Made by a program: the position numbers and the translations under genes
Notes under the pieces: generated by a model
Seen by the model: the letters and a program-made list of their open reading frames with translations, nothing else
Told to the model about the DNA's origin: nothing
Databases searched by the model: none
Origin: Eledone cirrhosa
Taxonomy: Eukaryota
Length of the DNA stretch: 64,000 nucleotides
Direction: 5' to 3'
Assembly (NCBI GenBank): GCA_964016885.1
Contig: OZ024743.1
Location: 191,456,001 to 191,520,000 of the forward strand
Shown here: piece by piece, positions 998 through 61,730 of the stretch
Numbering within the stretch: the stretch's first letter is position 1
Layout: each line of letters opens with the position of its first letter

Positions 998-1007
998 CCT
1001 AGAAGAA

Positions 1008-1050
1008 CATACATACATACATACATACATACATACATACATACATACAT
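1008..1050. repeat. (CATA)n microsatellite between two Dong elements
   Basis: Perfect tetranucleotide array. Confidence 0.98.
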
Positions 1051-2400
1051 AAGGAGAGAACCAGAACTGAATACCTCAGAAGAGTAAAGAAAATATGGTC
1101 ATCAGAACTGTCAGCATACAACAAATACATTGCCCACAATACTTATGCTGTGCCAATTCTAACGCCAACATTTGGCCTGCTGAACTGGTCATTGCAAGAA
1201 ATAAGTGAGATGGATGTTAGAACTCGAAAACTTCTCAGTGTTACTGGGAACTTTAACATCAATGGTGATGTGGATAGGCTATACTTCTCACGCAAGGAAG
1301 GTGGCCGGGGTCTAACATCAATATTAACAACATATGAGACCCGGATAGTAACACTGAAGCAATACCTTCAACAGAGGAAAAAGGTTGGCAACCATCTTGC
1401 CCAGGTTTATGAGCATAAAAAAAAATATCATTAGAATAGCGACTGATCTGGAGGAGAGATATGGAATAAAGCCTGATATAAATCTCTCACCCAGAGAAAT
1501 CGGAAGATCCTATTCAATGTTCAAACAAGATAAAAAAATTGACCAATTTACAGAAACAGTTGTGCATGGATACTTGAGGCGTAAAACACAGACCATAGAG
1601 GGGATAAACCACTCAAAAAGCCTGGCATGGAGTTCCGACAAGTTTATGACATCACACCTTGAGGGATATCTCTATGCAATACAGGAACAAGAACTCCCTA
1701 CCAAATATCTGCTGCACAAAAGCGGAGGGCCAGCAGCTGACAATAAATGTAGGCTATGTAAAACAAAGATCGAGGATGTAAGCCACATTGTTGCCAGCTG
1801 CGAAAGAATGTCATCTCGCTACTACCTTCCCATGAGACACGGTGGGATAGCTAGAACCATCTGGAACGCACTTCGGAAAACAAAATTAACAACAAACGCG
1901 GAAGAATATATTGAGACAGATGGCACTAAGGAATACTGGTGGAACCTGAAAATAAAAACTGCCACCAAATTAAAGCACAACCGGCCTGATATTGTTGTTT
2001 GGGACCACACATTGAAAACGTGTTCTGTTGTGGAGATCAGCTGCCCACTTGATGTAAACGTTGTCAGAAAAATACAGGAGAAGGAGGACATCTACGGACG
2101 ATTGATGAGGAGTTTACAAATCCAGTATCCAAGATACACCTTTAGCTTCATACCCATCATTATTGGAGCTACGGGTTATATACTAACCGGCTTGGACCAA
2201 AGTATGACTGAACTTGGATTTGCGGACAAAAAGCGCAGCTCCCTAATTCATAGTCTACAAATGGCTGCGATAGCTGGCACCATCAAAATTTACAAAACAT
2301 TCTTGCGATTCAAGGAATGACAATTTCTTTTCTTTTACAACCTTGCCACCAGGAAGGTGGCCGGTCAAAAAAATATACTCGAAATTAAGAGAAAGAGAAA
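1051..2400 (+). mobile_element. 5'-truncated R4/Dong-type RLE non-LTR retrotransposon (subfamily beta)
   Basis: ORFs 1150-1434 and 1385-2320 carry the post-RT motif RLYFSRKEGGRGL, a CCHC knuckle and an RLE domain. Short 3' UTR is shared with 28395-28477 and 56885-56962. (CATA)n lies on both sides. Confidence 0.93.
1385..2320 (+). pseudogene. C-terminal part of Dong/R4 ORF: CCHC zinc knuckle plus restriction-like (PD-D/ExK) endonuclease
   Basis: CRLCKTKIEDVSHIVASC, RH, NRPDIVVWD..VVEISCP..KEDIY motifs. Frameshifted relative to 1150-1434. Confidence 0.92.
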
Positions 2401-2470
2401 ACATACATACATACATACATACATACATACATACATACATACATACATACATACATACATACATACATAC
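2401..2470. repeat. (CATA)n microsatellite
   Basis: Perfect array. Confidence 0.98.
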
Positions 2471-3744: not shown

Positions 3745-3747
<3 letters not shown>

Positions 3748-4562: not shown

Positions 4563-4605
4563 ACGTTGCTGACGATAGCTAATAAGCTTGAAACTAGTAC
4601 AGCGT
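4563..4605 (+). ncRNA. Type I minimal hammerhead ribozyme (family A)
   Basis: acgttg-CUGACGA-u-agcu-aaua-agcu-u-GAA-acuagu-A-cagcgu. Stem I acguug/cagcgu extends through agga/uccu past a bulge. Stem III is the palindrome ACUAGU. Predicted GUA cleavage site. Confidence 0.88.
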
Positions 4606-5162: not shown

Positions 5163-5873
<711 letters not shown>

Positions 5874-7915: not shown

Positions 7916-8221
7916 AACAAAGTCAATCTGTAAACGCAGAAGTGGATATTTCAAAAAACGTTGCAACCGGGGGAAGACAGGAAGACGATACTTTGGTTCG
8001 TGGAAACGTTTGCTGGCAAAGAATGGGAAAAAACGAATATAATACGTCATTAATAGGAGCGGTGAAAAACAATTACGCGCAAAGACAGAACCACGTTTAT
8101 GGTATAAAAGAGGTCGTAGACTAATGTTCTCTTAGGTGGTTCATAGAGACGTTCTCTGGCAATGAACGAAAGAAACGAAGATAATACGTCATATGTGGAG
8201 CGTGGAGAACAATAGCACGCA

Positions 8222-8853
8222 TTTGTTGGTATAACCCACCATATAATATGGAGGTGGCCACACCATTAGCTAAGTTCTTTCTTTCCCTTATTACGAAACA
8301 TTTTCCCCCTACACATAAATATAGTAACATTTTTAATAGAAATACTATTAAAATTTCTTACTCTACGACTCCTAACCTTGCACATAACATCACAGCTTCA
8401 AATTTAGCTAAACTACCTAGCCGTAGGAACACGTGCAACCCTGTAGTTAGTACCTACTGTAATTGTAGGAATCGGGTTGATTGCCCCCTATCTGGGAAAT
8501 GCCTCTCTAGTAACATTGTCTACAAATGTAAGGTTGTAACACCCACGTCCCGTAGGGCCTACATAGGGTTAACCGCCAATAGATTCAAGCAGCGTCTTTA
8601 CATGCATACCCATTCTTTTCGTTACCCTCTAAGAAGGAATATGACAACCACACCCAATATAAGTTACACTGGGAGATCCTAGCTAGGGCTAGATCGTATA
8701 ACGGAAATAAAAGACCATGTGACCTCTGCGCCGCTGAGGCCCTGGAAATACTCTACGCCACAGACCACATCTTAAACAAAAAATCTGAGTCAATTTCGGC
8801 TTGTAAACATAAATTGCACAAAACTTTCCTGTATTACAGCCCCACGTTATAGC
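8222..8853 (+). pseudogene. Penelope linker plus GIY-YIG endonuclease fragment
   Basis: HFPPTHKYSNIFNRNTIKISYS, CNC....CPLSGKCL..NIVYKC..AYIGLT..FKQRLYMH. After a break the sequence continues as CDLC..E....LNKKSE..SACKH. Confidence 0.88.
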
Positions 8854-24617: not shown

Positions 24618-24649
<32 letters not shown>

Positions 24650-24688
24650 CATACATACATACATACATACATACATACATACATACAT

Positions 24689-25291
24689 GGAGGCTGCCAA
24701 CTCGTTTTCGAGTGCGGCCACTACTTTATATCCATGTAGGAGAACCCCTACCGATGCGCTGAACGAGTGTGACTTTTTAGTCCAGCCAGCGACTTGAAAA
24801 CTCTGGTACAAACACTACACTTGTGACAATTATTGACACATAGAGCTGGGCCCATGGTACCATGTGACGACAAGTGCAGAGAGATCTCCAGATACAAAGC
24901 AATGTCTGTGCCGTGAAGCTTTTATAGTGAGCAAAGGCACTGCACAAAGCCAGTCCCACTCTCTTAACCAAGATGATATTTACCAAAAAGAAGAACAAGT
25001 CAACATCATTGGATACCATCAGGGTTGCAGGTCTTATATCAGAGTTTTCATTCTCCTAGAATTTTGACAAAGGCTAAGGGGTCATCTCTCCCGGTGATTT
25101 TGGATGGCCATTGACTCTTACGAGCTCCTTTGCCCTTTGACAGGTTTTGTTTTTAGTCCTGCAGGATGTTCAAAGTCACCCTCCTCACCAAGAAACCTTG
25201 GTGGGGTTGCCAGTTTAGTCGCCAACGACCCGACCATGAGACAGGTTGTACTGAGATACTTGTTACCAGTAGCACCAACTGGTGACCTGAC
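24689..25291 (-). mobile_element. Full-length non-autonomous bipartite RTE-derived element (type B, about 600 bp) with (ATGT)n tail
   Basis: Four copies in the window. Contains the RTE 5'UTR-like motif ctaggagaa(g)gaaaactctga, a remnant encoding CSVCTRVFKSLAGLKSHTRSAHR*, and a 3' hairpin actcg-aaaa-cgagt. Confidence 0.85.
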
Positions 25292-25317
25292 ATACATACA
25301 TACATACATACATACAT

Positions 25318-25635
25318 GGTGGCTGCCAACTCGTTTTCGAGTACGGCCACTACTTTATATCCATGTAGGAGAACCCCTACTGATGCGCTGAACGAGTGTG
25401 ACTTTTTAGTCCAGCCAGCGACTTGAAAGCTCTGGTACAAACACTACACTTGTGACAATTATTGACACATAGTGCTGGGCCCATGGTACCATGTGACGAC
25501 AAATGCAGAGAGATCTCCAGATATAAAGCAATGCCTGTGCCGTGAAGCTTTTATAGTGAGCAAAGGCACTGCACAAAGCCAGTCCCACTCTCTTAACCAA
25601 GATGATATTTACCAAAAAGAAGAACAAGTCAACAT
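25318..25635 (-). mobile_element. 5'-truncated type B RTE-derived element
   Basis: Near-identical to 24689-25005. (CATA)n on both sides. Confidence 0.88.
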
Positions 25636-25717
25636 ACATACATACATACATACATACATACATACATACATACATACATACATACATACATAAATACATA
25701 CATACATACATACATAC

Positions 25718-27820
25718 TTGGGGTGTGCTGAACAACTCCTAATCAACAAAACTGTGATGTCGGAAGTTTCGAAAACTTAGGAGGAATATGGCTACAGTCT
25801 GGCTGGACTACAGGAAAGCTTTCGATTCTTTTCCCCACTCTTGCATGATAGAGGCCCTCTGACTTACTAAACTCCCATACATTATTATCAGAGCCATAGA
25901 GAAGCTGTCTTCTTCTTGGGCTACTATCCTAAAGTTAAAGATAGAGAAGGAAGACTATTTTCACTGATAAAATAGAATATCACAGGGGTATATTTCAAGG
26001 AGATAGTCTCTCTGTGATATTATTTATCCTGTCATTAAAACCCCTTGTCCTTTCTGCTCAAGAAATGTGAAGGATACATCATTGGATCACAGGAGGACAA
26101 AAATACGAACCTAACCCATAATTTCTTTGTGGATGATCTGAAACTATATGCCAAGAACATAGATGGGATGAAGAAAAATCTTGACCTGGTTACAACATTC
26201 TCAAAGGATATATGAATGGAGTTTGGCCAAGATAAGTGTTCATATATGACTGTAAAGCGGGGACAAACTACAAACTAATCTGGCAACATTGTCATCAATG
26301 GCCTAACTGTTTCATCTGATAAGAACTTCTACAGACAACTGGGGATAGATGAGAACATATCATATAATGCTATCTGTAATAAGGAACGCGTAACCAGGGA
26401 ATACTACACCCGATTAAGAAAGATCTGGTCATCGGAACTCTCTGCGCACAATAAAACAGTAGGTCACAATGTGTTTGCTGTGCCTGTCCTAACACCAACG
26501 TTTGTAATACTCAATTGGATGATAGACGAAGTTCGAGCAATTGATGTTAGAACTCGAAAAATACTAAACAAGACCGGAAACTTACACATCTATAGAGACA
26601 TAGACCGCCTTTACTTGAAACGTAAACAGGAGGCAGAGGCCTAACATCAGTCCAGACAGCATTTGAATGTCGCATCATATCACTCCGACAACATCTACGA
26701 ACCTCGAAGCGTAGGAGCCCGTCTCTCGAGCAAGTCTATCTGCATGAAACAAATAAGATCATGAGAGTTGGGAAGGAACTCCTTGAGAGATATTCCCTGT
26801 GCGATAATCAAAAACTCACACCCAGGAATGTCGCTCAGCAGTATCGCAGTGAATCCATGGATGAAAAACTGCATGCCTATCAGCAAAAAATCATGCATGC
26901 ATATGTTGCCAGGAAGCTCCAGAGTGAGAGTAATATAGATAAAGAAAGTAGTCTATCTTGGACCAACAACCGCTATATTGGCTCCCACTTTGAAGGATAC
27001 GCTTTTGCAATCCAAGAACAGGAAATAAACACGAAATACCTGATTCACAAAAGCGATAGGTATGCAGGCAAAACACCTAGATGTGACAACAAGTGCAGAC
27101 TCTGCAGAGTTAACATCGAAGATATCACCCATGTCATAAGCAGCTGTCCAAAGATGTCATCGCGGTACTATCTACCTATGAGGCATGATGTAGTGGCCAA
27201 AACACTGTACAATGCAATCCGTAGAAAAGATAGCCTCGATAATAAACACATTAAAACCTACAGCAATGTAGAAGAGATACATATACATAATATGACCAGA
27301 TATAATGATATGGGACAGGGAAAAAAAGACATGCACAGTAGTCGAAGTTAGCTGCCCAGCAGATTCCAATATAATATCAAAGATTAGCGGAAAGGAGAAT
27401 ATTTATGCAGAACTAATGAGAAATCTGCAGATACTCCACTCTGACTATACCTTCAGATTTATGCCTGTGATTATTGGGGTACTGGGATATGTTAGTAACT
27501 GCCTCAATACAAATCTTGAGAATCTGGGCTTCACAGAAACAGAAAGAACACGACTAGTTAGGAAATTGCAAGTACAATCCAAGTGGAACAGTAAAAATAT
27601 GTAAAACATTCCATACAAAGCGTATGCACATGCACACATATAACTCAAAACATCCACATCCACACATACAATAACATCCATAGCTACGTATGCAAGCAGA
27701 CATGCATACATATCTACCTAGTTGATGTGTAAATTCCAATGAGAGTGTCTTGTAACTATGTTAGAAACCGGCTCTCTCTCTCTATTGGCAAACATTTGTG
27801 AAATTATAAAACCAGAAGAA
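25718..27820 (+). mobile_element. 5'-truncated, frameshifted R4/Dong LINE (subfamily alpha)
   Basis: RT motifs (WLDYRKAFDS, GIFQGDSLS, FVDDLKLY), CRLCRVNIEDITHVISSC, RLE remnant, and a 3' UTR ending aaaccagaagaa(cata)n. Confidence 0.92.
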
Positions 27821-27890
27821 CATACATACATACATACATACATACATACATACATACATACATACATACATACATACATACATACATACA

Positions 27891-28025
27891 TTGAAAACGT
27901 GTTCTGTTTTGGAGACCAGCTGCCCACTTGATGTAAATTCCAATGAGAGTGTCGTGTAACTATGTTAGATACCGGCTCTCTCTCTCTATTGGCAAACATT
28001 TCTAAAATTATAAAACTAGAAGAAC
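27891..28025 (+). repeat. Chimeric Dong-beta/Dong-alpha unit from local tandem duplication
   Basis: The first about 45 bp equal the start of the 28088 beta copy and the rest equals the alpha 3' UTR. Joined at ttgatgtaaa. Confidence 0.8.
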
Positions 28026-28087
28026 ATACATACATACATACATACATACATACATACATACATACATACATACATACATACATACAT

Positions 28088-28477
28088 TGAAAACGTGTTC
28101 TGTTGTGGAGATCAGCTGCCCACTTGATGTAAACGTTGTCAGAAAAATACAGGAGAAGGAGGACATCTACGGACTATTGATGAGGAGTTTACAAATCCAG
28201 TATCCAAGATACACCTTTAGCTTCATACCCATCATTATTGGAGCTACAGGTTATATACCAACCCGCTTGGACCAAAGTATGACTGAACTTGGATTTGCGG
28301 ACAAAAAGCGCAGCTCCCTAATTCATAGTCTACAAATGGCTGCGATAGCTGGCACCTTCAAAATTTGCAAAACATTCTTGCGATTCAAGGGATGACAATT
28401 TCTTTTCTTTTACAACCTTGCCACCAGGAAGGTGGCCGGTCAAAAAAAATATACTCGAAATTAAGAGAAAGAGATAA
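28088..28477 (+). mobile_element. Heavily 5'-truncated Dong LINE (subfamily beta)
   Basis: Near-identical to 2012-2400. (CATA)n on both sides. Confidence 0.92.
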
Positions 28478-28723
28478 CATACATACATACATACATACAT
28501 ACATACATACATACATACATACATACATACATACATACATACATACATACGCACGCACGCACGCACACACGCAAACACAGAGATTTGCATATGTATTTAC
28601 ATAGTTGATGTCTAGATTCCTGTGAAGGAGTCTTATTTCTATGTTAGAAACCGACACTCCATAGGTGAAAATTTATAAAATAATGACTTCTTGTATAGGC
28701 ACAAAGCCAGGAAGATTTATAAA

Positions 28724-28910
28724 ATAATTGTTTCCACTTTTGGCACAAAGCCAGCAATTACCCAGTGCATTACTGGTACTTTATTTTATCGACCCCGTAA
28801 GGATGAAAGGCAAAGTTAACCTCGGCGGGATTTGAACACAGAATGGCAAGGGCCGTAGCTCTATGCGTCAAAGCATGGCGTCCGACGTTCTACCGACACT
28901 GCCAATCCAC
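28724..28910 (-). mobile_element. SINE (main family) with TSD atttataaaataat
   Basis: Full core. Direct repeat at about 28714 and 28911. Confidence 0.88.
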
Positions 28911-28936
28911 ATTTATAAAATAATATAACCATATAT

Positions 28937-28980
28937 GATGGCTGCCCCCTCGTTATCGAGTATGGCCATTGCACGAGAAG
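28937..28980 (-). mobile_element. 3' terminus of type C RTE-related element
   Basis: Reverse complement ctcgtgcaatggccatactcgataacgagggggcagccatc matches 61654-61692. Confidence 0.85.
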
Positions 28981-29150: not shown

Positions 29151-29760
29151 GGTGGTTGCCAACTCGTTTTCGAGTACGGCCACTACTTTATATCCATGTA
29201 GGAGAACCCCTACCGATGCGCTGAACGAGTGTGACTTTTTAGTCCAGCCAGCGACTTGAAAACTCTGGTACAAACACTACACTTGTGACAATTATTGACA
29301 CATAGTGCTGGGCCCATGGTACCATGTGATGACAAGTGCAGAGAGATCTCCAGATATAAAGCAATGCCTGTGCCGTGAAGCTTTTATAGTGAGCAAAGGC
29401 ACTGCACAAAGCCAGTCCCACTCTCTTAACCAAGATGATATTTACCAAAAGGAAGAACAAGTCCACATCATTGGATACCATCAGGGTTGCAGGTTGTTAT
29501 ATCAGAGTTTTCCTTCTCCTAGAATTCTGCCTTGACAAAGGCTAAGGGGCCATCTCTCCCAGTGATTTTAGATGGCCATTGACTCTTAAGAGCTCCTTTG
29601 CCCTTTGACAGGTTTTGTTTTTAGTCCTGCAGGATGTCCAAAGTCACCCTCCTCACCAAGAAACCTTGGTGGAGTTGCCAGTTTAGTCACCTACGACCCG
29701 ACCATGGGACAGGTTGTACTGGGATACATGTTGCCAGTAGCACCAACTGGTGACCTGACA
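29151..29760 (-). mobile_element. Full-length type B bipartite RTE-derived element
   Basis: Aligns end to end with 24689-25291. Confidence 0.88.
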
Positions 29761-29936
29761 CATATACATATATACATATATACATACATATATACATACA
29801 AACATACATACACATACACACACACATATACACACACATACATTAATAACAATAATAATAATAATAATAATAACGACAACAACAATAATAATATACATAT
29901 TCATATATATATACACACACGCGCACGCACATAAGC

Positions 29937-29968
<32 letters not shown>

Positions 29969-29976
29969 GATAGCAA

Positions 29977-32900
29977 CTAACAGTGCTGCGATCGAATGTG
30001 GCTTTTTAGCCCAGCCAATGATCTAAAGTGTATTGCACAGAGTCGGCAACCAAAACATTCACTGGGAATAGTCGGCTGTGGTTGGAGTTCGTGTACTTTT
30101 GCATGTCGCTTGAGCCCTCCTGCTGATTTACATTCTCTACCACATGTTTGGCAAGCATGATGAGTAGCATCTCCAACAGCAGCCTGGTAGTCAACCACTG
30201 GTCTTACTTTATGACTGCGAAGATGACTTTCGAGTCCAGCTTTGCTTAGGCAGAGTCTCGCACAGACGCTGCATGTCAGCACCATAGGAGGACCCTCGCC
30301 GTCTGGAAGTACATCAGCAATGCCCTTCCTCACATCCCGCTTTACTTTGTCGTGTGCGATTCGAGATGCCACAAAGGCAACTTTTCCCTCATATACAGTC
30401 TTTCTCCATTTATTACGATCAGCAGCAAAAATTTCCCATGTATCAGCAGAGATGTTAGCGTCTTTCAGAGAGGCTTTCGAGGAATCCTTATACCTCTTTT
30501 TTGGTTTATGTGGCGGTCGTTTTCCTTTAACCAACTCTCCATAGAAGAGTTGTTTGGGTATTCTAGAATCCTTCATCCTGGCAAGGTGACCACTCCAACG
30601 GAGTCGTTGCTTAAGCACAAGAGCTTCTATACTGTCACTCATAGAGCTTTCCAAAATCTCGACATCACTGATGTGGTCCATCCAGTGAACGCCATGGATC
30701 CGTCTGAGACACATCTGATGGAAACGCTCCAATTGCTTAAGGTGGTGTCGATATGTGACCCAGGTCTCGCAGGCATAAAGAAGACAAGAGAGTACACATG
30801 CCCTGTACACCCTTACCTTTGTCCTCCTGCATATGTCTCGCCGACCCAGAGTCGCCTTTCTAGCTTTTCGAAAGCATCACTTGCTTTCCTAATCCTAAGT
30901 GAGATTTCACTGTCAAGGTTGCCGTATCGATTGACAGTGCTTCCCAGGTAGACAAACTGATCAACCACTCCAAGGCGTTTGCCATACACATAGATGTTTG
31001 GTTCAGTGTACTGCTTACTAGGGGCAGGTTGGTACATGACGACAGTTTTCTTGAGACTGACAGTCAAACCCAGGGCAGTGCAAGCGTCAGAAAATGCATT
31101 CAAAATGTGCTGCATATCACTCTCTGTGTGCGCTACAAGATCGCAATCATCTGCATACAAGAGGTCTCTTATGATTGATGTAAACACATTTGTCTTCGCA
31201 GCAAAGCGCCTGATGTTAAATATGCTGCCTGAGGTTCGATATCGGATGTAAACACCATGCTCGCAATTCCTGAATGCAATACAGAAAACCATTGCAAAGT
31301 ATATGGCAAACAGGGTCGGTGCTGGAATATCCCCCTGTTTCACTCCATTTTTTACTGAGATAGGCTCCGACATGTTACCTCCGACATTAACCCAAGCCTT
31401 CATGTCGTCATGGAAAGACCTAACTAAAGCAAGGAACTTATCAGGGCAACCATGTTTCTGGAGAACCTTCCATAATGCATCTCTGTTGACAGTATCGAAA
31501 GCCTTTGTCAGATCGACAAGAACCTGATACAGATCCAAGCCTTGTTCAATGCATTTCTCCTGGAGCTGTCTAGCTGAGAAGATCATATCAGTAGTGCCGC
31601 GTCCAGTACGAAAACCAGATTGACTTTCAGGAAGAACACAATCTGCAATGTGTGTCAGCAGACGGTCCAGAAGCACCCTACATAAAACTTTCCCTACGAC
31701 AGAAAGCAATGATATACCTCTGTAGTTCCCACAATCATTCCTGTTACCCTTTCCCTTGTACAAGACCACCATTATTGCATCTCTCCAGTCCTCTGGTACG
31801 GATTCATTAGCCCATATCCTTCCAAACAAAGAGTGCAGATGTTGCAGGAGTCTCTCACCACCATATTGTAGGAGCTCAGCATGTATGCTATCCATACCTG
31901 GAGATCTTCTACTGTTCAGTTTCGAAATAGCCACTGCAACCTCCACAAGCGTCGGAGGTTCTGCGAGAGCTACTTTCACAGGACTTTCTGGAATGAGATT
32001 GAGGAAATCTTCACTGACGACAGACGGCTTATTCAAAAGTTCATCAAAGTGCTCTCGCCACCTTCGTAGAATTCCCTGTGAGTCACGAAGAAGTTCTTTG
32101 CCATCCTTGCTGCGAAGCGGTGTCACCAGGGAAGAAGACGGTCCATAAACCTCACGCAAGAGACTGTACAACAGCTTTGTGTTATTGGAATCAGACGCAG
32201 TTTGTATCTCACCAGCCTTCTCACTCCACCACTGATCATTCATCTGAGAAAGACTCCGCCTAACACGTGATTTTACATCCCTGAGCTCCTCATGCAACGT
32301 ATTCCTCTCCTGTGGTTTTGCCGTCAAGTAACGTGACAGAGCACGCCTCTTATCAGCCAACAAGTCTTCTATATGTACATCATTCTCATTAAACCAGTCC
32401 TGATGTTTTCTCTGCACCAATCCCAGAACACGCCTGCCTACATCATAAACCGACTTTTTAAGGGTCGGCCAATCCTCACCAAGATCTGCAGCCTGCATCT
32501 CTTCTTCCAATGTCCTCTTCACATTTTTATCCTTAAGACGAGCAGCATTCAATCTTTTGGGCAGGGTAACACCAGGAGCCCGGATTTTACGTTTGGTGAT
32601 TAGTTTCACTTTTGCGCGTAACAGGCGGTGGTCCGTCCAGCACTCAGCTCCACGAAAAACACGAACACACTGCACATCCTGTCTGTCACGCATCCTGACT
32701 AGGACGTAGTCCAAAAGATTCCATTCCTTAGATGCAGGATGCATCCATGTGGTCTTGAATTTGTTCTTTTGTTGGAACATGGTGTTGGTAACACACAGAT
32801 CCAGATCCTCACACATCTGCAGCAGGAGCATACCATTGCTGTTACACCTTCCCACCCATGCCTTCCGATTACATTCCATGTGTTAAAATCCCTACCCACT

Positions 32901-33400
32901 CTAGCATTAAAGTCACCAAGCACGATGACTTTGTCTGCCTGAGGGATATTTCTTAGAACACCTTTCAAGGCATGGTAAAAGGACAGTTTTTCTTCATCGA
33001 CAGAATTCATAGTTGGAGCATACACACTCACCGGGGTAGCATATCTTATTTGTCCAGCGGAACTCTCATGGACATAAGACGCTCACTAATCCCTACTGGG
33101 AATTCTTCTAATTTATTCACAAGTACAGTCTTAACAGCAAATCCTACCCCAGCCTCTCTTCTGGTTCCTTCATCTTTTCCTTTCCAGAAGAATGTATATT
33201 CTCCACAAAATTCCGTAAGATGACCATCTCCAGATAACCTCGTCTCAGACAAAGCCACGATGTCAAGATCGTAACGTCGAAGCTCCTTTGCAACAAGAGC
33301 GGTCCTTCGTTCAGGACGCTCCAAGGAATCCCTGTCAAGCAGCGTCCGTACGTTCCAGCAGCCAAGACTAAATGTCTTGTTTGGCTCTATTACAATGGCA
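29977..33400 (-). pseudogene. RTE/BovB-clade LINE ORF (APE endonuclease, reverse transcriptase, three C2H2 fingers), frameshifted
   Basis: WNVRTL, ALSETR, GDFNARVG, TDHRL (APE). DLTKAFDTV, GVKQG, LLYADD (RT). LRWSGHLARM. C-terminal CxxC..GL.SH.R.H three times. Confidence 0.95.
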
Positions 33401-33856
33401 CGATGACGAGCGGGCCCAGGCTGTGATAACTTGGGGCCCCTGCCCTTATTGCCAATGATCTTTTTTTGTTCCAGAACCTAAATTGCCAATTATCTCTTTT
33501 ACATTGTTCTGGAACATCATTGAATTTGAAAAAAAAAAAAAAGTAATAATAATTATAGTAATAATAATAATAATAATAATGATTTCATTTATTAGCCACA
33601 AGGGCCGACATGTAGGGGACAATACAAAGACAGGGACAGTGGGGTTCACAATAAGGTCGAGTAAAAGTGCACAATGGCAAAACTAATTTAACAATGAAAA
33701 TATAAAAATATAAAATAAACTATACAAAATATAACAAAATAAATTCCCCGATAGGGGGTGGACGACCCTGGGGTGATTCGGGTACCACACCAATCCTGAA
33801 CCACCCTGCGCTTCTAGGGCACCCAGGAGAGCACCCCTCTCCTCAAGTTAGCTAGC

Positions 33857-36800
33857 CTATAGGCGCATGGTCAGAGTAGGCCCATTCACACGAGCCATTC
33901 TCGCCACATTCACCCACCTTTTAGCAAATGTACTGGGGGGCAGCACTTCTCTCTCCACCCTCACCCTCCTTTCCAGGTGAAACTTGAAGAAGTTGATGAG
34001 AGATTGACCGAAGAGAAAAGTGTCTGTCTTTAGTCCTTTCAACCTGGTCCACCATATAATCTCTTTCGCAACTGCCACCAGACAGAGGAAAATGTCCTGC
34101 TCTTCCTGACCTAAGGAAGGCGGCGGCTCGATCTTCACTATGGACTCGGCCGATAACCGGATTCGTTCCACACGCGACAGTAGCTGTTCGACATAACTCC
34201 ACAAGTCAGTAATGCACGGACATTTGACAAGTGCGTGCAGAACGGTTTCGTCGTTCTGTGCTCATCTTGGGCAGGTCCGTCTGACAGCACTTCCGTGCCT
34301 GTAGAGTTTATCCCGAACCGGCAGTGCCCCCCGGTAGCACTGCCAAGCGAGGGATTTCTGGAAATTGTCCATCGTCCCCGGCTCAAAAGTCCTCCGGTAC
34401 AGACTGGTCAGTTCGACTTCGTCGAGGCCCAAAGCTTCTCCGAGTGCGTCATCGCACTTGCCCACCACTAATCCTCTATAGAACTCGAGAGTGGAAGTTC
34501 CACTGATCGCATTGCCCGCTTGGTAGAGGGCAGTGAGTGCCTGGCAACATTCCAGGTGCCAGTCACCCAGTCTCGGTCTCTTCTTGACCCAGGACTGCAG
34601 CTCAGTCAAAGAAATGAGCTGCGGAAAGGCCCGTCTGATAAACGGCGACCATACCTGTTCACCATTGAGACAGAATATCTGGAGATGTCGCAGCCTCAAC
34701 GCATGTCTGCGCATCATTAGCCACGGCATGCCCAGCCCTCCGCGTAGAGGGTGCTGGCAGCAGATGGACCGCCTCACCAACGGAACTTGTCCCCTCCACA
34801 AGAATTTGAAGAGGAGCCGTTCCAACTTGACGAGGCGCGGACGGGGGCAAGGCACGACGGTTAGGAGGTAATAGATGACGGACGCGATGTACGCATTCGC
34901 TACCTCCGCGCGACCTTTCAGTGATAGCTTCCTCCCAGCCCATTTTTAGGTGAGACTGGCTACTCTGCTCGTTACCTCGTCACAATTCTTTTCCACCTGG
35001 AGGTCTGGTCCGAACCAAACCCCAAGCAACTTTACTGGTCCGTCCGTCCAGCGCCCCACGACGCTGTTGGACGGCATGGGCTTGCCTTTCCAGGTTCCGA
35101 GCTGCAAGCCCACCGACTTTTCCGGGTTAAGTTTGGCTCCTGTCAACCTTTCATATTCCTTCAATAAGGTGCCGCCCACCTCGATTTCTGAGGTGTTCGA
35201 CACCATCACGGTGATGTCGTCCGCATAAGCCGACACCGCCTTTCCACGTCCCGGTTCGAGCGGGATGCCCTGCAACAGCTCCAGCTTCCGCAGTAAGGGA
35301 AGAGAGAGGGCACCCTTGACGGACCAATCGGGAGAGCCGAAATGGTTCCGAGAGGTGGCCATTAACCTTGACCACCGAGCGTGTGCCGCTGTGCATTGCA
35401 ACGATCCAGCTTCTAAAGACAGGGCCGAAGCCAGCTGCTTTGAGGACAAAATCCAGATACCGATGGTCGACCCTATCGAATGCTTTCGATTGATCTAAAT
35501 TGATGAGTGCCCCACCGAAGCCAGGTTTACACCCTACCCTCTCTATGATGTATCGCATGAGGTGGAGATTGTCGTGTATGGACCTGGCTGGGATTGCGCA
35601 GGTTTGCGCCTCCCCAACCAAATCCTCGACGACAAGCGCCAATCTCTTTGCTAACACCTTGGCCAAAATCTTAAACTCTGTTTTGAGCAGAGTTATGGGC
35701 CTGAAGTTGTCTAATGTATCCCTCTTGTTCTCGTCTTTCCTTATCAGCGTCACCACTCCCCTGCTCACAGAACTGGGAATACTCCCATTCTGCTGCCAGT
35801 TACAGTAGAGTGCTTCGAGGAGTTCGGAGAACAAGTCTGGCATATTTACGTAAAGCTCGTAGGGCAGGCCATCCAAACCGGGTGACTTGCGCCTCATGCA
35901 GCCGACAAGGGCGTCCTGAATTTCGGCTGAAGTAATCGGCCTTTCGCAGCGCTCAGCGTCGACCGTCGAGATGCGCGGCAAGCCGTCAAGGTAGGGACTG
36001 AAATCCGCTACTCTCTCTGACTCGCCACTCTCCCCGAACAACCGAGCAAAGTGCTGGCGAAAGGCCTCACACATCCGCTTGGAATCGCTTATCTCGTGTC
36101 CGTCTCGGTCCGCCAAAGACCGAATTGTGGTTTTATTACCACGCTGCGCCTCCGCCACGCGGGCCGATCGAACAGCTTTAGTTCCCTCGTTTCTCAGCGC
36201 ACGCGCCTTAGCTCTGACAATGCAACCTTCGTGTTTGGCATTGAAGAAATGGTCTAATGCCATTCTCGCCGCTAGCACGTCAGTTGCGATGCCACTACAA
36301 ATAGCCTCGTCTAACTTATCTACCAGCTCCCCCTCCTTTCTATTTTTCTCTAACGCTAGTTCTTTGCTGAACTCTATCGAAGTTACTCTAATCTCTCTTT
36401 TGAGAGCCCCCCACCATCTGTTGTTGATGATCCCTCCTGTCAACTTTTCCTTAACTAACTTATTGACTCGGTCCCTGTAAGCCTTACGTGCCGGAAATGA
36501 CATGTTCAGCTTCCGGTAACCCGGTCCTAACCTACGCGTTTTATTTAGGTCGACCGTACAGATCACAAATTTGTGATCTGAATAGGCGACCGTTTTAAAA
36601 AGTGGACAGCCCACACTATTTCTGTCTATGTTCCTAATGAAGATTCTGTCTATATACGATCTAGATGACCCCATTCGGTTGGTCCATGTCCATACTGGCA
36701 CATTGGGGAAATCTAGTCAGACAGTTGGAACTGGCTGAGTAGGTGCTTGAGGCTTTTGCACCCCCCGTTCCTATCGGCTACTCCCACACAATCCCAGCGT

Positions 36801-37243
36801 GCGTCTAAGATGCCATTCCAGTCCCCCGCTAACAGTAAAGGGCGAGACGTACCCAGAAAGGTCTCCAGGCGCCTAAAGAAGTCAGGTCGTCCGGCCCCTG
36901 TAGGGGCGTAGACGACCAGCAGTCTAAAGGCACCACCTTTGCTACTGCTCACATCCAAGACCACCAACTTACCGTCCGGGTCCCGGAAGATCGACCTTAC
37001 CTCGAGATCCAGTCCTTTCCTAAACAGCACTGCCACCCCACCCCCCATTCCCGGCCTGCTAACAGATGCGAAGATCTGATAGTCGTCGAAAATGGGGGCT
37101 AGTGCACGCGTGTCGGAAATTCTGGTCTCGCTTACGGCAATCACATCCATTTCCAGCGACCGGAGGTCGTTGAGCAGGCGACCCTGCTTCCAGGGTGACC
37201 CCAGGACGCGAACATTTAAACTTCCTACTCTTAATATGGCCAT
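33857..37243 (-). pseudogene. Tx1/L1 ORF2 (APE, RT, C-terminal CCHC), disrupted by stops and frameshifts
   Basis: SLNVR, SETR, GDWN, SYIDR, SDHK; LDQSKAFDRVDH, RQGCPLS, AYADD; CPR....ETVLHALVKC. Confidence 0.93.
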
Positions 37244-37252
37244 ATTGGTAAG

Positions 37253-38467
37253 CTAAGAGAGAGAGAGGGAAGGTTTACTTACCTCCCGGGTCTTGTGAAG
37301 GTCGGGTGGTTCGACCTCCATGGTTGGTGGGGTTTCTTTTGGGAACCCCTTTAAAAGTCTTGATGTGGGTTTCACTTTCGGGTTTCCCACGTCTTGAGGA
37401 AAGCTCTCTCGAATTTCTTTGAAAGAATTGAGTGACATTCGGACCAGAAGCAAATCTTCTGGCACGCAAAATGTGCTCATTTCAAAAATCTCCCCCTCTG
37501 TTTGAATGTCCTCGCTTCGCGCTAAGAGGACCATCAGTTTATCGTTGGCCCTTCTGACAAGTACGAAGTTTTTAACATTTTCTTGGTGTGGTTTTATTTG
37601 TTTTCGTTTTGGTGAAGGTGGTGGCGATGGTTTTGGTGGTGTTGTTTTGGGTATGTCTATGTTTGTTGTAGGTGTGGTGTCTGCAATTTCAGGTATTTGT
37701 GTGTTTATTTGTACTTGTGTTTGTTTAGGTTGTTTGCGTTTCGGGGATTGTGGAGGTGGTGTCGATGTTGCTGATGGTGCTGATGTTATTGGGGAAGTGT
37801 CTGCGTTAGTGGTGTCTGTATTTTTTGTTGTGTGTGTTTTTGTGTTTTGTTGGGGCTTTTTTTTTGTGAGTTTTCTCTGTTTTTTTGCACTTTTGGGTTT
37901 TCCTTCATCTTCGCTGCTGGACGACAAAGGGTCTGTGTCTGTGAGTGTCTCTGTGTCTGTGTGTGCGTTTATTTTATTTTTTTGTCTATGTATATACATA
38001 GTTGGGGGGGTAGGGGGAGTGGGAGAGCTTTCCCCGTTTTCTCCTTGGATTGGTTTTGGTGTTGGTGGTGATCCGGCTGCTTTTGATATTGGTGTCCGTG
38101 TTTTTGTTGATGTTGTTTTTGGTGGTGGTGGTGGTGGTGGTGCAGCTTTCCGTGCTGACACTGGCGTTGGCAACAAAGGAGGTTTGCGACCCCCTGCATT
38201 TTTGCGCTGAGGGCAGAAGGCTTGAAGATGCGTGGCTTCCCCGCAAACGAAGCAGCGTGGCCTTCTTCCGTCAATCATTAGTTGGATTGTTGTCCCGTCC
38301 TGCAGGCGGGGAGAATCTGGGATGTTATTTATATCCTCCGGTTTCATTTGGAGAAGAATCTCCAAATCCATTCCGGACCAGTCTTCTCTCTCTGTCCTTT
38401 TGATGTCCAGGAGGGTGGTGTCTGTCCCCTCCTCGATTACGCATCCCAGCAGCCACCATATGTTCAT
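37253..38467 (-). CDS. Tx1 ORF1 (gag-like CCHC knuckle plus Pro/Thr/Lys-rich region), N-terminally truncated
   Basis: CFVCGEATHLQAFC. 404-aa open frame ending 9 nt before the ORF2 ATG. Confidence 0.85.
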   Translation of the reverse strand: MNIWWLLGCVIEEGTDTTLLDIKRTEREDWSGMDLEILLQMKPEDINNIPDSPRLQDGTTIQLMIDGRRPRCFVCGEATHLQAFCPQRKNAGGRKPPLLPTPVSARKAAPPPPPPPKTTSTKTRTPISKAAGSPPTPKPIQGENGESSPTPPTPPTMYIHRQKNKINAHTDTETLTDTDPLSSSSEDEGKPKSAKKQRKLTKKKPQQNTKTHTTKNTDTTNADTSPITSAPSATSTPPPQSPKRKQPKQTQVQINTQIPEIADTTPTTNIDIPKTTPPKPSPPPSPKRKQIKPHQENVKNFVLVRRANDKLMVLLARSEDIQTEGEIFEMSTFCVPEDLLLVRMSLNSFKEIRESFPQDVGNPKVKPTSRLLKGFPKETPPTMEVEPPDLHKTREVSKPSLSLS

Positions 38468-38488
38468 TCCTTAATAATAATAATAATA

Positions 38489-38960: not shown

Positions 38961-39035
38961 TACCGTCATTACTGATACAAGATTACAAGATATATATAAC
39001 CATATATACATACATATATACATACATAGATAGAC

Positions 39036-42000
39036 AGTCAACGCGATAAGTCGCATATTTAGGCTTGGGAGACTATTTATTAAATTTAAGATGAATACTA
39101 TCTCCGACAGTAATGCCACAACTACAGCCAGGTTGAATAACTGGTTATTCTTCTAACTATCCCTTCAGAAGACACCTTTTATTCGAATTCGTAGAGATAT
39201 CCGACTAAATACATAATTCATTTTACAAGGATTTGCTACAAACAGCATGACTGAACACAAAATCAACAAAAAAATTAAGGAAGTATCGAAGACAAATAAC
39301 AAGGAAGGTAATCAAACTTTATTCAGTTGTAGCTACAGAAGAAACCGAAATTATAAATCGCGTTTCTCTTGGAGTTGCGAACTTAATAATGATTTATTTA
39401 ATTGTTATAAAATGGCAAAAAACAATCCCTCCATTGGCTATATGAATAGAATGAAGCTACACTGGGACGAAATGCACCCAGAGCTAAATTATTTCACAGC
39501 GAAACAATTACGTCAACAAGCGACGTTTGTTGAACGTAAAAATAAGATAAATATTATTAATTGTAAGTCCCCCACAACAAACATGGAATCAACAACACGT
39601 GCTACAGATTGCCATGCTACTAGACTTCCTAGCAGCCAGGTCGAACAGCGCCTTGAAACAACTATGTCTGTAAGAAACTTGACACCACCTGTACCATCTA
39701 AGTCTACCTCGAATGCTGGGGAAAACACTATCGATAATAATAATAATAATCGAATAAATGTGATACCACGTATACCATCCGAGTCTACCTCGACTTTGTG
39801 GAAAACACTATCGATAATGATAATCAAAAGCATAAACAATTGAAAATTTCCCTCAACGAAATCTTCCAGACAGAAATTAACTCATTTATAAATATCTCTC
39901 GTGCTGAACGTGTTAAAATGACAATGGTGAATAAAAAACCAAATAATGAAATACTATGTGTTATTGACGAAATAGGGGATGAATATTTATGACGGATAAA
40001 AACCCCAACGTTTTAGCAAATCAACGCCTTAGCAATGACAGTGAAGCATTATCTTGGTGATAGTAGAGATATTAACAAGAACAAAACACCACCAAAAATA
40101 CCATCATATATAACTAAAATAGAAAAAAAGAGTGCTGTCATACGAAAAAACATAGGACATGTGACAATGCTCCTTACATGCAAACAAACACAAAAAAACC
40201 TCACTCCTCACCAACAAAGATTGAAAAATAAAATAGAGACGATGTTTGGTAACAGTAGAACCAGAACTCTCCAATATAAGCTGATCACCCTCAAACAAGG
40301 ATTGAAAGCTGTTAGCGAAAAACGCCGATACCTGAAGAAGGTAGATGAGAGAAAAGTGCTTAATAAAAGATTCAGACGAAACGAAACATCAGTCTATAGA
40401 GGTATGAAGGGCAAAATAATAAGTGTCACTGAGGCCCCATCCCAGAAAGACATAGATTACTTTTGGAGAAAAATATGGGGTGAAAAGAAGAATTTCAACC
40501 AAGATGCAGTGTGGCTAAGAGAAATCCGAAAGAACTATTGCTCCTACACTACAACAAAAACATACGAAATAAGTGAGGGTACCCTTGTGATAGGAAAACT
40601 CCAAGATAAGAAAACACCAGGAAGAGACATGATTGTCGGCTACTGGTACAAAAAACTAATATTCTATCGGAGGTATCTTACCAACAAGTTATTAAGGGAG
40701 ATAAACGTTTACCAGAATGCTTGACATTAGCACAAAAGTTACTGGTCCCCAAGAACAAAGACACCCACTTGGCAAAAAAATGCCAGAACCTGATGTATAA
40801 GATGTATACAGCCTGCCTGAACCTATTCCTCCAAGATCACTGTGAAAATAATAACATCATCACAGATGAACAAGCAGCTGGAAAGAAAGGGGTTTGGGGA
40901 TGTGCTGAACAACTCCTAATCAACAAAACTGCGATGTCGGAGGTGCGACAACTTAGGAGGAATATGACTACAGTCTGGCTGGACTACGGGAAAGCTTCCG
41001 ATTCTGTTCCCCACTCTTGGATGATAGAGGCCCTCCAACCAGCTAAAGTCCCAGACATTATTGTCAGAGCCATAGAGAGGTTGTCTTATTCTTGGACTAC
41101 TATCCTAAGGTTAAAGACAGGTAGGGAGGACTCTATTTTCACTGATAAAATAAAATATTGCAGGGGTATATTTCAGGGGACAGTCTCTATGTGATATTGT
41201 TCATCTTGTCATTAAACCCCTTGTCCTTTCTGCTCAAGAAATGTGAGGGATACATCATTAGCTCACAGGAGGACAGAAATACGAACCTAACCCATAATTT
41301 GTGTGGACGACCTGAAACTCTATGCCAAGAACATGGATGGGATGAAGAAAAATCTTGACCTGGTTACAACGTTCTCAAAGGATATAGGAATGGAGTTTGG
41401 CCAAGATAAATGCTCTTACATGACTGTAAAGCGGGGAAAAACAACAATCCAATCTAGCAACATTGTCATCAATGGTCTAACTGTTTCACCGATATCTGAT
41501 GTGGACTGCTACAGATACCTGGGGATAGATGAGAACATATCCTATAATGATATCTGTAATAAAGAACGCGTAACCAGGGAATACTACACCCGAGTAAGAA
41601 AGATCTGGTCATCGGAACTCTCTGCGCAAAACAAAACAGTGGCTTACAATGTGTTTGTTGTGCCTATCCTAACACCAACGTTTAGAATACTCAATTGGAC
41701 GATAGAAGAAATCCGAGCAGTTGATGTTGGAACTCGAAAAATACTGAACAACACCGGAAACTTCCACATCAACAGTACACATAGACCGCCTTTACTTGAA
41801 TCGTAAACAGGGAGGCAGAGGCCTAACATCAGTCCAGACAACATTTGAATGTCGCATCATATCTCTCCGACAACATCTACGAACCTCGAAGCGTAGGAGC
41901 CCGTTTCTCGAGCAAGTCTATCTGCATGAAACAGATAAGATCATGTGAGTTGGGAAGGAACTCATTGAGAGATATTCCCTGTGCGATAATCAAAAGCTCA

Positions 42001-42729
42001 CACCCATGGATGTCGCTCAGCAGTATCGCAGTGAATCCATGGATGAAAAACTGCATGCCTATCAGCAAAAAATCATGCATGGATATGTTGCCAGGAAGCT
42101 CCAGAGTGAGATTAATATGAAAGAGTACTGGTGGAATGTTCCAGTAAAAACCCAAATAAAATGCAGCATAACAGACCAGATATTATGATATGGGACAGGG
42201 AGAAGAAAACATGCACAGTAGTAGAAATTAGCTGTCCAGCAGATGCCAACATAATATCAAAGATTAGTGAAAAGGAGAATATTTATGCAGAACTGATGAG
42301 AAATCTGCAGATACTCTACCCTGATTACACCTTCAGATTTTTGCCTGTGATTATTGGGGCACTTGGATATGTTAGTAACTGCCTCAATACAAATCTTGAG
42401 AAGCTAGGCTTCACAGGAATAGAAAGAACACATCTAGTTAGGAGATTACAAGTACAATCCATTAATGGAACAGTAAAAATATGTAAAACATTCCAAAGAT
42501 TTTGCATCTAATAACTGCATATACACATGTACAGATACAAAGCATATACACATGCACATATACAACTCAAAACATCCACACATACAATAACATCCATATC
42601 TACACATGCAGACATACATATCTACCTAGTTGATGTTGTGTAAATTCCAATGAGAGAGTCTTGTGTCTATGTTAGAAACCGACTCTCTCTCTATTGGTAA
42701 AACTTTGTGAAATTATAAAACCAGAAGAA
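39036..42729 (+). mobile_element. Near full-length R4/Dong LINE (subfamily alpha), decayed, with internal deletion of the CCHC region
   Basis: ORF pieces 39247-42511: N-terminal W....N..L..CY.....GYM.RM...W...HP, RT motifs and the RPDIMIWD..EISCP RLE. 3' UTR followed by (CATA)n. Degenerate CATA repeats upstream. Confidence 0.93.
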
Positions 42730-42782
42730 CATACATACATAGTACATACATACATACATACATACATACATACATACATACA

Positions 42783-42812
<30 letters not shown>
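42730..42812. repeat. (CATA)n microsatellite
   Basis: Direct reading. Confidence 0.97.
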
Positions 42813-45742: not shown

Positions 45743-46204
45743 TTACGGAATCTTGAGAAAGCCATATTTCGGTATGCAGATGCTTTCGAAATCGTTCCCC
45801 AAGATATTGTTGTCTTTTAAGTTCCAAATTAAATGTGAAAGTGAAGTGGAAGATTTTTTATTGGATCTCTTAAATGTATGTTTATGGTTATACCAGCGTT
45901 CTTTGAATTTTGTAGAAGTGACACCAATATAGTTAAATACTTTGTCTCTAGATCTAACTGTGCATTTATAAATTACGTTTTTGTCTAAGCAATCATTTTG
46001 TAAAGGGCAGTTTGATTTAATTCTACAGTTACATTTTCTGGAGTTGTTCGGAACGGTACTATTATTCTGAATATTGTTGTTAGAAATATTGTTGTTAGAA
46101 ATACTGTGGTTAGAAATATTATTATTGCTATTTTGGTTAGTTTGGTTAGGGTTTAAATTTAAGTTTCTATTATTAATTCTATTTATATTTTGTGCTATGT
46201 TCAT
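45743..46204 (-). pseudogene. Penelope GIY-YIG endonuclease fragment with Asn-rich linker
   Basis: CNCRIKSNCPLQNDCL..NVIYKC...NYIGVT..FKERWYNHKH. Confidence 0.88.
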
Positions 46205-55744: not shown

Positions 55745-55962
55745 CAACACTACAAAGACAAAAACAAATACCATCATATAATACAAAACATACACATCCG
55801 CATATACAATAACATCCATACCTGCAGACACATGCAGACATGCAGACATATCTACCTAGGTGATGTTGTGTAAATTCCAATGAGAGAGTCTTGTGTCTAT
55901 GTTAGAAACCGACTCTCTCTCTCTCTAGTGGTAAAATTTATAAAATTATAAAACCAGAAGAA
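55745..55962 (+). mobile_element. Dong-alpha 3' UTR fragment
   Basis: Matches 42530-42729. Followed by CATA repeats. Confidence 0.85.
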
Positions 55963-56098
55963 CATACAAACATACAAAATACATACATACACACTCATAC
56001 ATGTATGCATGCATAAATACATACATACATACATACATACATACATACATACATACATACATACATACATACATACATACATACATACATACATACAT

Positions 56099-56531
56099 GG
56101 TGGCTGCCAACTCGTTTTCGAGTACGGCCACTACTTTATATCCATGTAGGAGAACCCCTACCGATGCGCTGAACGACTGTGACTTTTTAGTCCAGCCAGG
56201 GACTTGAAAACTCTGGTACAAACACTACACTTGTGACAATTATTGACACATAGTGCTGGGCCCATGGTACCATGTGACGACAAGTGCAGAGAGATCTCCA
56301 GATATAAAGCAATGCCTGTGCCGTGAAGCTTTTATAGTGAGCAAAGGCACTGCACAAAGCCAGTCCCACTCTCTTAACCAAGATGATATTTACCAAAAAG
56401 AAGAACAAGTCAACATCATTGGATACCATCAGGGTTGCAGGTGTTATATCAGAGTTTTCCTTCTCCTAGAATTCTGCCTTGACAAAGGCTAAGGGGTCAT
56501 CTCTCCCATACAAAGGCTAAGGGGTCATCTC
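56099..56531 (-). mobile_element. 5'-truncated type B RTE-derived element with a 21-bp duplication at its truncation point
   Basis: Aligns with 29151-29560. caaaggctaaggggtcatctc occurs twice. Confidence 0.88.
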
Positions 56532-56564
56532 ATACATACATACATACATACATACATACATACA

Positions 56565-56594
<30 letters not shown>

Positions 56595-56595
<1 letters not shown>

Positions 56596-56963
56596 TCAGC
56601 TGCCCACTTGATGTCAACGTTAAAAGAAAAATACAGAACATCGTCGGACCATTGATGAGGAGTTTACAGATCCGGTATCCAAGATACATCTTCAGCTCCA
56701 TACCCATTATTATTGGAGCTACAGGTTATATACCAACCCGCTTGGACCAAAGTATAACTGAACTTGGATTTGTGAGCAAAGAGCGCACCTCCCAAATTAA
56801 AAGAGTACAAATTCATAGAGTACAAATGGCCACAATATCTGTCACCTTCAAAATTTGCAAAACATTCTTGCGATTCAAGGAATGACAATTTCTTTTCTTT
56901 TACAACCTTGCCACCAGGAAGGTGGCCGGTCAAAAATGTACTCGAAATTAAGAGAAAGAGAAA
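56595..56963 (+). mobile_element. Dong-beta 3' fragment
   Basis: Matches 2036-2400. Preceded by (CATA)n. Confidence 0.88.
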
Positions 56964-61121: not shown

Positions 61122-61311
61122 GTCGAGTCACTCTTGAGTGTTACTGGTAACATGTAACCCAGTACAATCTGTCGCATGGTCGGATGGTCGGCGACAAAAC
61201 CAGCAACCTCACCAAGTTTACTTGGTGAGGGGGGGGTTGGACATCCTGTAAGACAAAAAAAAACAAATCCTGACAAACGGCGGAAGAACTCATGAGTCAA
61301 CAGCCATCCAA

Positions 61312-61349
<38 letters not shown>

Positions 61350-61730
61350 ATACGCACGGGGACATAGAAATAATTGGGCTGGATACCCGACCGCGCGGTA
61401 AACCACTGGGAGAGAAGGACCCCTAGGCTTTGTCAGGGCATTCTTCTGGGAGAAGGCAACTCAGGAAACTGGGATAACTCCAACATAAAACCCGCGGCTC
61501 AGTAGTTACCGATGATGTTGGTCTTTTCTTCTTCTCGGGTTACCGCTACTGTCGCTCAGAGATTGGGATTGGCTCAGTGCACACTTTGAAAAAAAATCTC
61601 CACGCACAGACATTGCACGATAGCATTAATTGATAATTATTAATAATGTTATATCGTGCAATGGCCATATCGATAACGAGGGGGCAGCCATCATGTATGT
61701 ATGTATGTATGTATGTAAGTATGTATGCAT
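61122..61730 (+). mobile_element. Full-length non-autonomous RTE-related element (type C) with internal (TG)n and (ATGT)n tail
   Basis: Head, middle and 3' end are homologous to type B. No ORF remnant. Flanked by ATGT repeats. Confidence 0.85.

Follow-up and report, generated by a model that had tools for sequence, protein, structure and literature searches.

How do retrotransposons of two clades come to occupy the same tetranucleotide microsatellite, on opposite strands of it? The question is raised by a 64,000-nucleotide stretch of the Eledone cirrhosa genome (GCA_964016885.1, contig OZ024743.1, forward-strand positions 191,456,001 to 191,520,000; the window, in whose own coordinates all positions are given), a repeat-rich DNA of 37% GC. 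Two families of Dong-like long interspersed nuclear elements (LINEs), Dong-alpha and Dong-beta, and a short family derived from RTE-type LINEs, termed type B, adjoin (CATA)n arrays here; the sense strand carries CATA in the Dong copies and ATGT in the type B copies, and at no element end was an array of the wrong strand found. The association is real and non-random, and we consider it likely that Dong-like LINEs and type B sit oppositely in the same arrays with each family homing to them independently.

The main island reaches approximately position 29843, further right than a preliminary description of this DNA had drawn it, and was checked base by base (RT, reverse transcriptase; RLE, restriction-like endonuclease; UTR, untranslated region; SINE, short interspersed nuclear element):

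24620..24688, plus strand: (CATA)n array on the tail side of B1.
24689..25289, minus strand: B1, a full-length type B copy, putatively a non-autonomous bipartite RTE derivative.
25290..25317, plus strand: (CATA)7 array, adjoining B1 on its 5' side and B2 on its tail side.
25318..25631, minus strand: B2, a 5'-truncated type B copy.
25632..25717, plus strand: (CATA)n array between the 5' ends of B2 and Dong-alpha, the tail of neither.
25718..27819, plus strand: 5'-truncated Dong-alpha with decayed RT, CCHC knuckle and RLE.
27820..27891, plus strand: (CATA)n array at the Dong-alpha 3' end.
27892..28023, plus strand: 132-bp segment, previously called a chimera, forming the central part of a tandem duplication of 196 bp.
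28024..28087, plus strand: (CATA)n array, the duplicated copy, 5' flank of Dong-beta.
28088..28476, plus strand: 5'-truncated Dong-beta (RLE end and 3' UTR).
28477..28550, plus strand: (CATA)n array at the Dong-beta 3' end.
28571..28930, plus strand: old Dong-alpha 3' UTR remnant split by a SINE; boundaries approximate.
28937..28976, minus strand: 40-bp 3' fragment of type A, a sister RTE-derived family, with no clear array.
29151..29758, minus strand: B3, a full-length type B copy.

The order given by the preliminary description held at base level, except that its "chimera" proved to be part of the duplication: the segment fuses 46 nt of Dong-beta to 92 nt of the Dong-alpha 3' end at a TGATG..TAAA microhomology. 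Its status as a separate insertion was rejected, since it shares the Dong-beta truncation point of the next copy and breaks within that common word. The 196-bp units show seven differences, and in six or seven of these it is the middle segment alone that deviates, which may reflect error-prone copying or poor assembly polishing. B1 consists of a 5' UTR-like section, an open reading frame (ORF) end with the last C2H2 finger and stop codon, and a 3' UTR of about 55 nt, with a private 5-bp deletion near 25064; Dong-alpha has an internal deletion near 27234-27296. The 5' junction of B2 has a 4-nt ATGT microhomology to the array and that of Dong-beta an ACAT microhomology. The SINE (28685-28910) lies within a 14-bp target duplication (28671-28684, 28911-28924), A/TA runs fill the space between the type A fragment and B3, and B3 itself is flanked on the tail side by 11 bp of CATA followed by (TA)n and on the 5' side by a degenerate CATA/TA/CA mosaic (29760-29843). 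Four further islands were recognized:

1007..2470, plus strand: array 1007-1051, Dong-beta 1052-2400 and array 2401-2470; no RTE.
39033..42812, plus strand: Dong-alpha 39033-42728, nearly full length and with degenerate CATA on its 5' side, then array 42729-42812; no RTE.
55745..56530: Dong-alpha 3' fragment (plus) to 55962, array to 56098, and type B copy B4 (minus) at 56099-56530.
56531..56963: continuing the preceding island, head-to-head array 56531-56594, then Dong-beta (plus) 56595-56963 with no 3' array.
61124..61717, plus strand: type A copy A1, 61124-61692, flanked by ATGT runs of 12 bp and 25 bp.

An old, SINE-interrupted Dong-alpha (1-1006) precedes the first of these. The pattern of the main island was said to recur at 1-2470 and 55745-56963; the latter combines Dong, type B and arrays, and 1-2470 holds Dong copies and a SINE without any RTE-derived element.

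When merged CATA/ATGT arrays of at least 24 bp were considered, 12 of 13 adjoined a Dong, B or A end, as did one of eight shorter arrays and none of 34 long AC/GT/AT arrays (the end list for this dinucleotide count excludes the end of an autonomous RTE that adjoins a (TG)n run). Free CATA/ATGT arrays were at most 15 bp, save for one imperfect 27-bp run. The flanks were then scored over 16 bases, a match to the array in at least 14 counting as positive, a threshold passed by 1.5% of window positions; the old Dong remnant at 28571-28930 was left out. By this measure Dong matched at five of six 5' flanks and five of seven 3' flanks (a sixth scored 13), and type B at three of four 5' flanks (scores 16, 16, 13 and 16) and all four 3' flanks, against 0 of 50 control ends from 25 elements (0/25 for 5' flanks), whose boundaries are BLAST ends and thus approximate. 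A 3' array is weak evidence because the tail travels with the element, and the 5' side is therefore the real test. Taken together, 8 of 10 Dong and B 5' flanks matched (Fisher p 7e-7, the 29 comparison rows including four RTE-derived ones), a value that overstates the evidence because the eight ends sit on only six arrays. The strand rule proposed earlier was thus borne out, with no wrong-strand array and no matching control end. Moreover, the arrays at 25632-25717 and 56531-56594 are each bordered by a 5' end on either side and can be the tail of neither neighbor, which means that both families land in arrays; since an array adjoins the 5' end of each B copy, type B itself lands in arrays in addition to building them. 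The shared landing site of the preliminary description consequently stands, supported by arrays at the 5' ends of both families and by the two head-to-head arrays. A strand bias of the window as a whole was rejected as an explanation, with four islands oriented one way and that of A1, the sole one of opposite polarity, the other.

These same data bear on the view that no homing occurs at all, and that the elements accumulate passively in tolerated repeat-rich DNA, while recombination between arrays unites elements that carry tails. Such accumulation is described for Waldo-A/B (PMC3812793), and the 196-bp duplication is a local rearrangement of the kind that this view would involve. It is, however, largely refuted by the base precision of the junctions, the strand rule, the arrays between two 5' ends, which cannot be tail-derived, and the 34 long dinucleotide arrays of which none is used, and we regard it as scarcely probable.

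The two partners were characterized by their motifs. Dong-alpha and Dong-beta, which are about 48-49% identical, encode in a single ORF an RT of the RLE group of non-LTR (long terminal repeat) elements, matched as RVT_1 in the Pfam scan, followed by a C-terminal CCHC knuckle and the PD..E..K motifs of a restriction-like endonuclease, the latter read in the alignment; a zf-RVT match (E 1.6e-5) fell under the Pfam cut-off. Among PDB structures, only R2 proteins matched the full-length relative P0001 (E 3e-28 to 4e-14), and a search with a 320-amino-acid piece of Dong-beta gave chance matches only. No N-terminal zinc finger or Myb domain was seen in the aligned N-termini or found by Pfam in P0001 or a second relative, L005, and the lack of these domains separates R4 from R2, NeSL, HERO and CRE. 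The elements would thus fit the R4/Dong clade, a label taken from architecture, the tree containing no named R4, Dong or Rex6 reference. An Rfam search of one Dong 5' end (39030-39330) gave no ribozyme match, and its fold had a z of -1.8; an HDV (hepatitis delta virus)-like ribozyme at the 5' end has been reported in R4/Dong (PMC3774820).

Type B has no ORF, no tRNA and no significant Rfam match, and hence neither coding capacity nor a head of tRNA, 5S or 7SL type. Its last 230 bases correspond to the end of an RTE-type ORF, with the last C2H2 finger and the stop codon, followed by a short 3' UTR, and the reference for this origin is an RTE in the window itself:

29969..33480, minus strand: decayed LINE of the autonomous RTE type, with apurinic/apyrimidinic endonuclease (APE), RT and three C-terminal C2H2 fingers.

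The B end and the end of this ORF share 55.6% identity over 27 amino acids (E 5e-4). In a search with the 57-amino-acid end of B, RTE-type C-termini made up 4 of 132 matches and two of the four best single matches, the remainder being mostly general finger proteins. The 5' part of B, common to type A at approximately 75%, presumably resembles an RTE 5' UTR; the window's RTE is without its own. Type B would therefore fit a bipartite non-autonomous RTE, and the family labels of the preliminary description, an RLE-type Dong-like LINE and an RTE-derived element, are upheld by the motifs and the C-terminal similarity. The three fingers ending the autonomous RTE (29977-30300) are a possible DNA-reading module common to the parent of B. 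Two small hairpin stems with varying loops are kept at the 5' ends of types A and B (25200-25289, 29670-29758, 61124-61215) with no ribozyme match, and a focused Rfam scan of the B 5' ends found none; folding at the 5' ends was weak (z between -0.8 and -1.8; -2.9 for A1).

Is the preference for CATA a property of the Dong lineage or a product of its company in this window? Of 45 loci of relatives fetched, flanks were read for 16, nine of them from close relatives, and a tetranucleotide array was present at one or both ends in seven of these nine and in none of the other two. L005, a distant full-length relative with 43-48% amino acid identity, has (ACAT)n on both sides and a 3' junction in the phase A|ACATAC, as in the window copies; it groups with Dong-beta (support 99/98) though only 48% identical to it, and its 4.1-kb contig holds no RTE. 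Six relatives (L001-L004, L008 and L010), several with ORFs of more than 1000 amino acids, are flanked by (ACTT)n on one side or both, and L004 has AAT too at its truncated 5' end; these loci are not independent, as all come from one contig series. With L005 flanked by CATA on both sides, the preference looks intrinsic, and tetramer homing is a property of this Dong lineage. Two relatives, both distant, were found in genome contigs and none in viral contigs. Two distant RLE elements (L015, L016) have a 3' flank resembling what we take to be the 18S rRNA end, presumably a sign of rDNA targeting, and two RLE retrotransposon relatives (L044, L045) lie on a contig of a bacterial metagenome-assembled genome (Rubritalea), probably as eukaryotic contamination.

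These findings also bear on the order of events. In the preliminary description, the tails of RTE elements produce or lengthen ATGT arrays, in which Dong lands later; on this view RTE itself would insert without site specificity. New microsatellites are indeed reported to arise from RTE tails (PMC2887409), ATGT forms the end of A1 and of each of the four B copies, and type B is very abundant, with more than 100,000 reads per restriction site-associated DNA (RAD) run, mostly 95-99% alike. The type A fragment at 28937-28976, which has a non-array 5' flank and adjoins the old Dong remnant, would fit this order as well, though the junction (28930-28976) is too decayed for a test. Nevertheless, no founder-like B copy with a non-array 5' flank was seen, two islands (1-2470 and 39033-42812) have Dong and arrays without RTE, and L005 has the same target on a contig free of RTE. 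In addition, the B copies differ from their majority at two to five of 314 bases, while Dong-alpha copies are 8.2% apart and Dong-beta copies 2.2%, or about 9% for that at 56595; at 55745-56963 the least diverged piece is B4, set between two older Dong copies. The B copies thus look younger than most neighboring Dong copies, although subfamily structure can distort such ages. The RTE-free islands, the lack of a founder signature and the younger B leave the RTE-first order unsupported, the arrays at B 5' ends speak against it too, and we consider it unlikely; if anything, Dong-alpha came first.

Reads from other individuals provided a view beyond the assembled copies. Four of 16 read runs were examined, the two raw runs representing two other individuals of one study. 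Of the 12 loose ends taken from raw reads, three proved to be a restriction end and three the 5-bp deletion private to B1, which left six informative ones, and in three of these (TACA)n followed directly past a 5' truncation of B, with an agreement of 0.75-0.81. At 25243, 657 and 773 reads ran into (TACA)n, about 5-6% of local depth, and at 25021, 447 reads did so, about 13% of local depth. All these junctions have the orientation of B and share ACA or CA with the array, and a contig end at 25063 likewise runs into TACA.

Insertion by target-primed reverse transcription might explain how the two families come to face each other. Under this process a Dong copy in plus orientation calls for an initial nick in the ATGT strand, and a type B copy in minus orientation for one in the CATA strand. 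Dong is probably guided by its RLE, which would nick the ATGT strand, as in other RLE elements (PMC4640811), whereas type B is probably guided by its (AUGU)n RNA end, which an autonomous RTE partner would copy once it has paired to the nicked CATA strand, in the manner proposed for RTE tails and their targets (PMC6007223). The position of B3 in a TA/CATA mosaic suggests that the tail-target match is tolerant. The junctions are base-precise and several have microhomology to the array; type B has an array on both flanks, which would mask any target duplication. Each insertion would split an array and leave two in its place, and these would grow by duplication, by the tail and by slippage, with the result that the islands feed themselves; the shortness of nearly all free arrays fits such lengthening. 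Neither family would require the other, but each would gain targets from the other.

Another possibility is that type B does not home by itself, and that the reverse transcriptase of RTE instead starts from nicks or breaks made by the Dong endonuclease in CATA arrays. For B to be copied, a 3' end must be available in the CATA strand, which is where the second nick of Dong would fall, B2 and B4 directly adjoin Dong copies, and RTE sites have been reported not to be sequence-specific (PMC2887409). However, A1 and B3 have array-like flanks without an adjacent Dong end, and tail pairing alone explains the strand rule, so we think it very improbable that B depends on Dong in this way. A bolder extension of independent homing, which we put forward only tentatively, is that an RTE-clade family now homes to microsatellites genome-wide, with a target in common with Dong that it uses from the opposite strand, and that feedback across the clades, in which an insertion of either doubles the target of both, builds most long CATA arrays of this genome; in that case, the specificity of B might derive from tail pairing, from the three C-terminal zinc fingers of the parent RTE, or from nicks made by Dong.

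Several observations weigh against independent homing of both families. All counts come from one window with five islands and six independent 5' arrays, and no empty site was seen in its analysis. The search with the 57-amino-acid end of B did not find its parent LINE or autonomous partner. The autonomous RTE and the RTE fragments at 28937, 38491 and 12139 have an ATGT array at none of their eight ends, the autonomous RTE ending in (TG)n and thus being a counter-example; together with the mosaic around B3, these four array-less pieces indicate that the preference on the RTE side is loose or family-limited. The earlier statement that every Dong copy has CATA is right as to strand wherever an array is present, but Dong-beta at 56595-56963 has none at its 3' end (8/16) and the Dong-alpha fragment at 55745 has no clear 5' array. 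As to the reads, the 12 raw ends belong to 24 examined among 1178, and positions 25283-25327 were skipped, leaving full-length 5' ends invisible; of the remaining informative ends, the two at 25094 show a mixture of A-rich and CATA sequence and the one at 25238 runs into non-array DNA, and the read piles could come from few loci.

Microsatellite homing itself is already known for Dong, and what appears to be new here is the CATA target and the Dong/RTE pairing. Dong of Bombyx mori, DongAg and DongBg, of the R4 clade, are (TAA)n-specific (PMC3812793, PMC2887409, PMC3774820). The window elements resemble them in having a single ORF with RT, CCHC knuckle and RLE, no N-terminal finger and a fixed orientation in the microsatellite, but their target is CATA (ACTT in relatives) instead of TAA and is common to two families of about 48% identity. 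PMC3812793 lists Dong among APE elements, while PMC3774820 puts it in the R4 lineage, and the architecture predicted for the window elements agrees with the latter. Type B resembles RTESINE1/2, WALLSI3 and MAR4_MD, which are bipartite non-autonomous RTEs (PMC5786205), in measuring about 600 bp, in combining a non-coding 5' part with the outermost 3' end of an RTE, in its microsatellite tail and in its very high copy number, but it differs in having 5' arrays as well, that is, in landing in the repeat. Microsatellite-generating RTEs of Lepidoptera (PMC2887409) and the correlation of RTE tails with targets (PMC6007223) offer the same 3' tail. In the Lepidoptera elements, the repeat is only 3', inside the target duplication, and the sites are not sequence-specific, whereas type B has 5' arrays too and so departs from the Tay type, in which a repeat at the 3' end alone goes with an unspecific 5' flank. 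Waldo (ACAY)n, whose target includes ACAT, Mino (AC)n, Kibi (TC)n and Koshi (TTC)n (PMC3812793) and Togen (TG)n (PMC4640811) are microsatellite-homing non-LTR elements of other clades, and the sections available of these two papers do not describe two clades using one array from opposite strands. No literature account of a CATA- or ACTT-specific Dong, of an RTE that homes to a repeat, or of Dong and RTE in one array, was found, though Repbase and subscription papers may hold such. Octopuses are known to carry both Dong-R4 and RTE, one RTE reportedly with a microsatellite 3' UTR (PMC9115989); the word "target" is absent from the main text of PMC13282606.

With CATA and ACTT added, the Dong lineage offers naturally occurring versions of a single endonuclease that differ in their four-base target, and the RTE side suggests that a tail can act as a homing guide, beyond seeding a repeat. 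An origin is thereby proposed for long CATA arrays. Insertions in arrays are hard to place by short reads, and a CATA marker taken from a genome of this kind would in many cases represent more than one locus. In one octopus a screen based on short reads detected little activity of Dong (PMC9115989), and the curated annotation of another counted 1129 recent Dong-R4 insertions (PMC13282606), a contrast that this placement problem might explain. As for the abundance of microsatellites in general, which the preliminary description had hoped to explain, the account holds for the CATA arrays and not for other repeats: CATA/ATGT makes up 736 of 4529 perfect-array bases in the window (16%), and CATA homing is thus no explanation for most of its microsatellites.

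An exact 22-base pattern of B had no match in metagenome, genome and viral collections, and an Rfam scan of the whole window gave nothing but microsatellite look-alikes among 150 of 208 rows. The 5' junction of B4 (56509-56530) contains a short stretch of B in duplicate, linked via TGTATG, which suggests a template jump via the array. A SINE of one family interrupts two old Dong-alpha 3' ends (770-1006 and 28671-28924) near the same ATAAAA word, which may be a hot spot or an old composite. The repeat mix of the window (Dong-R4, RTE, Tx1 and Mariner) resembles published octopus landscapes (PMC8967140, PMC13282606). A Mariner-type element with inverted ends is set between (TA)n runs at 6628-7542, and a repeat family of unknown kind, in several direct and inverted copies often adjoining (TA)n, lies at 3745-5831. 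The ORF remnants at 8185-8682 and 45743-46384 are related to each other and have no Pfam match; their look is one that we take to be GIY-YIG-like, as in Penelope. Finally, a two-ORF APE/RT LINE on the minus strand at 33584-38470, which we assume to be Tx1-like, has (TTA)n-like runs at both ends and is perhaps another case in which the tail matches the target.

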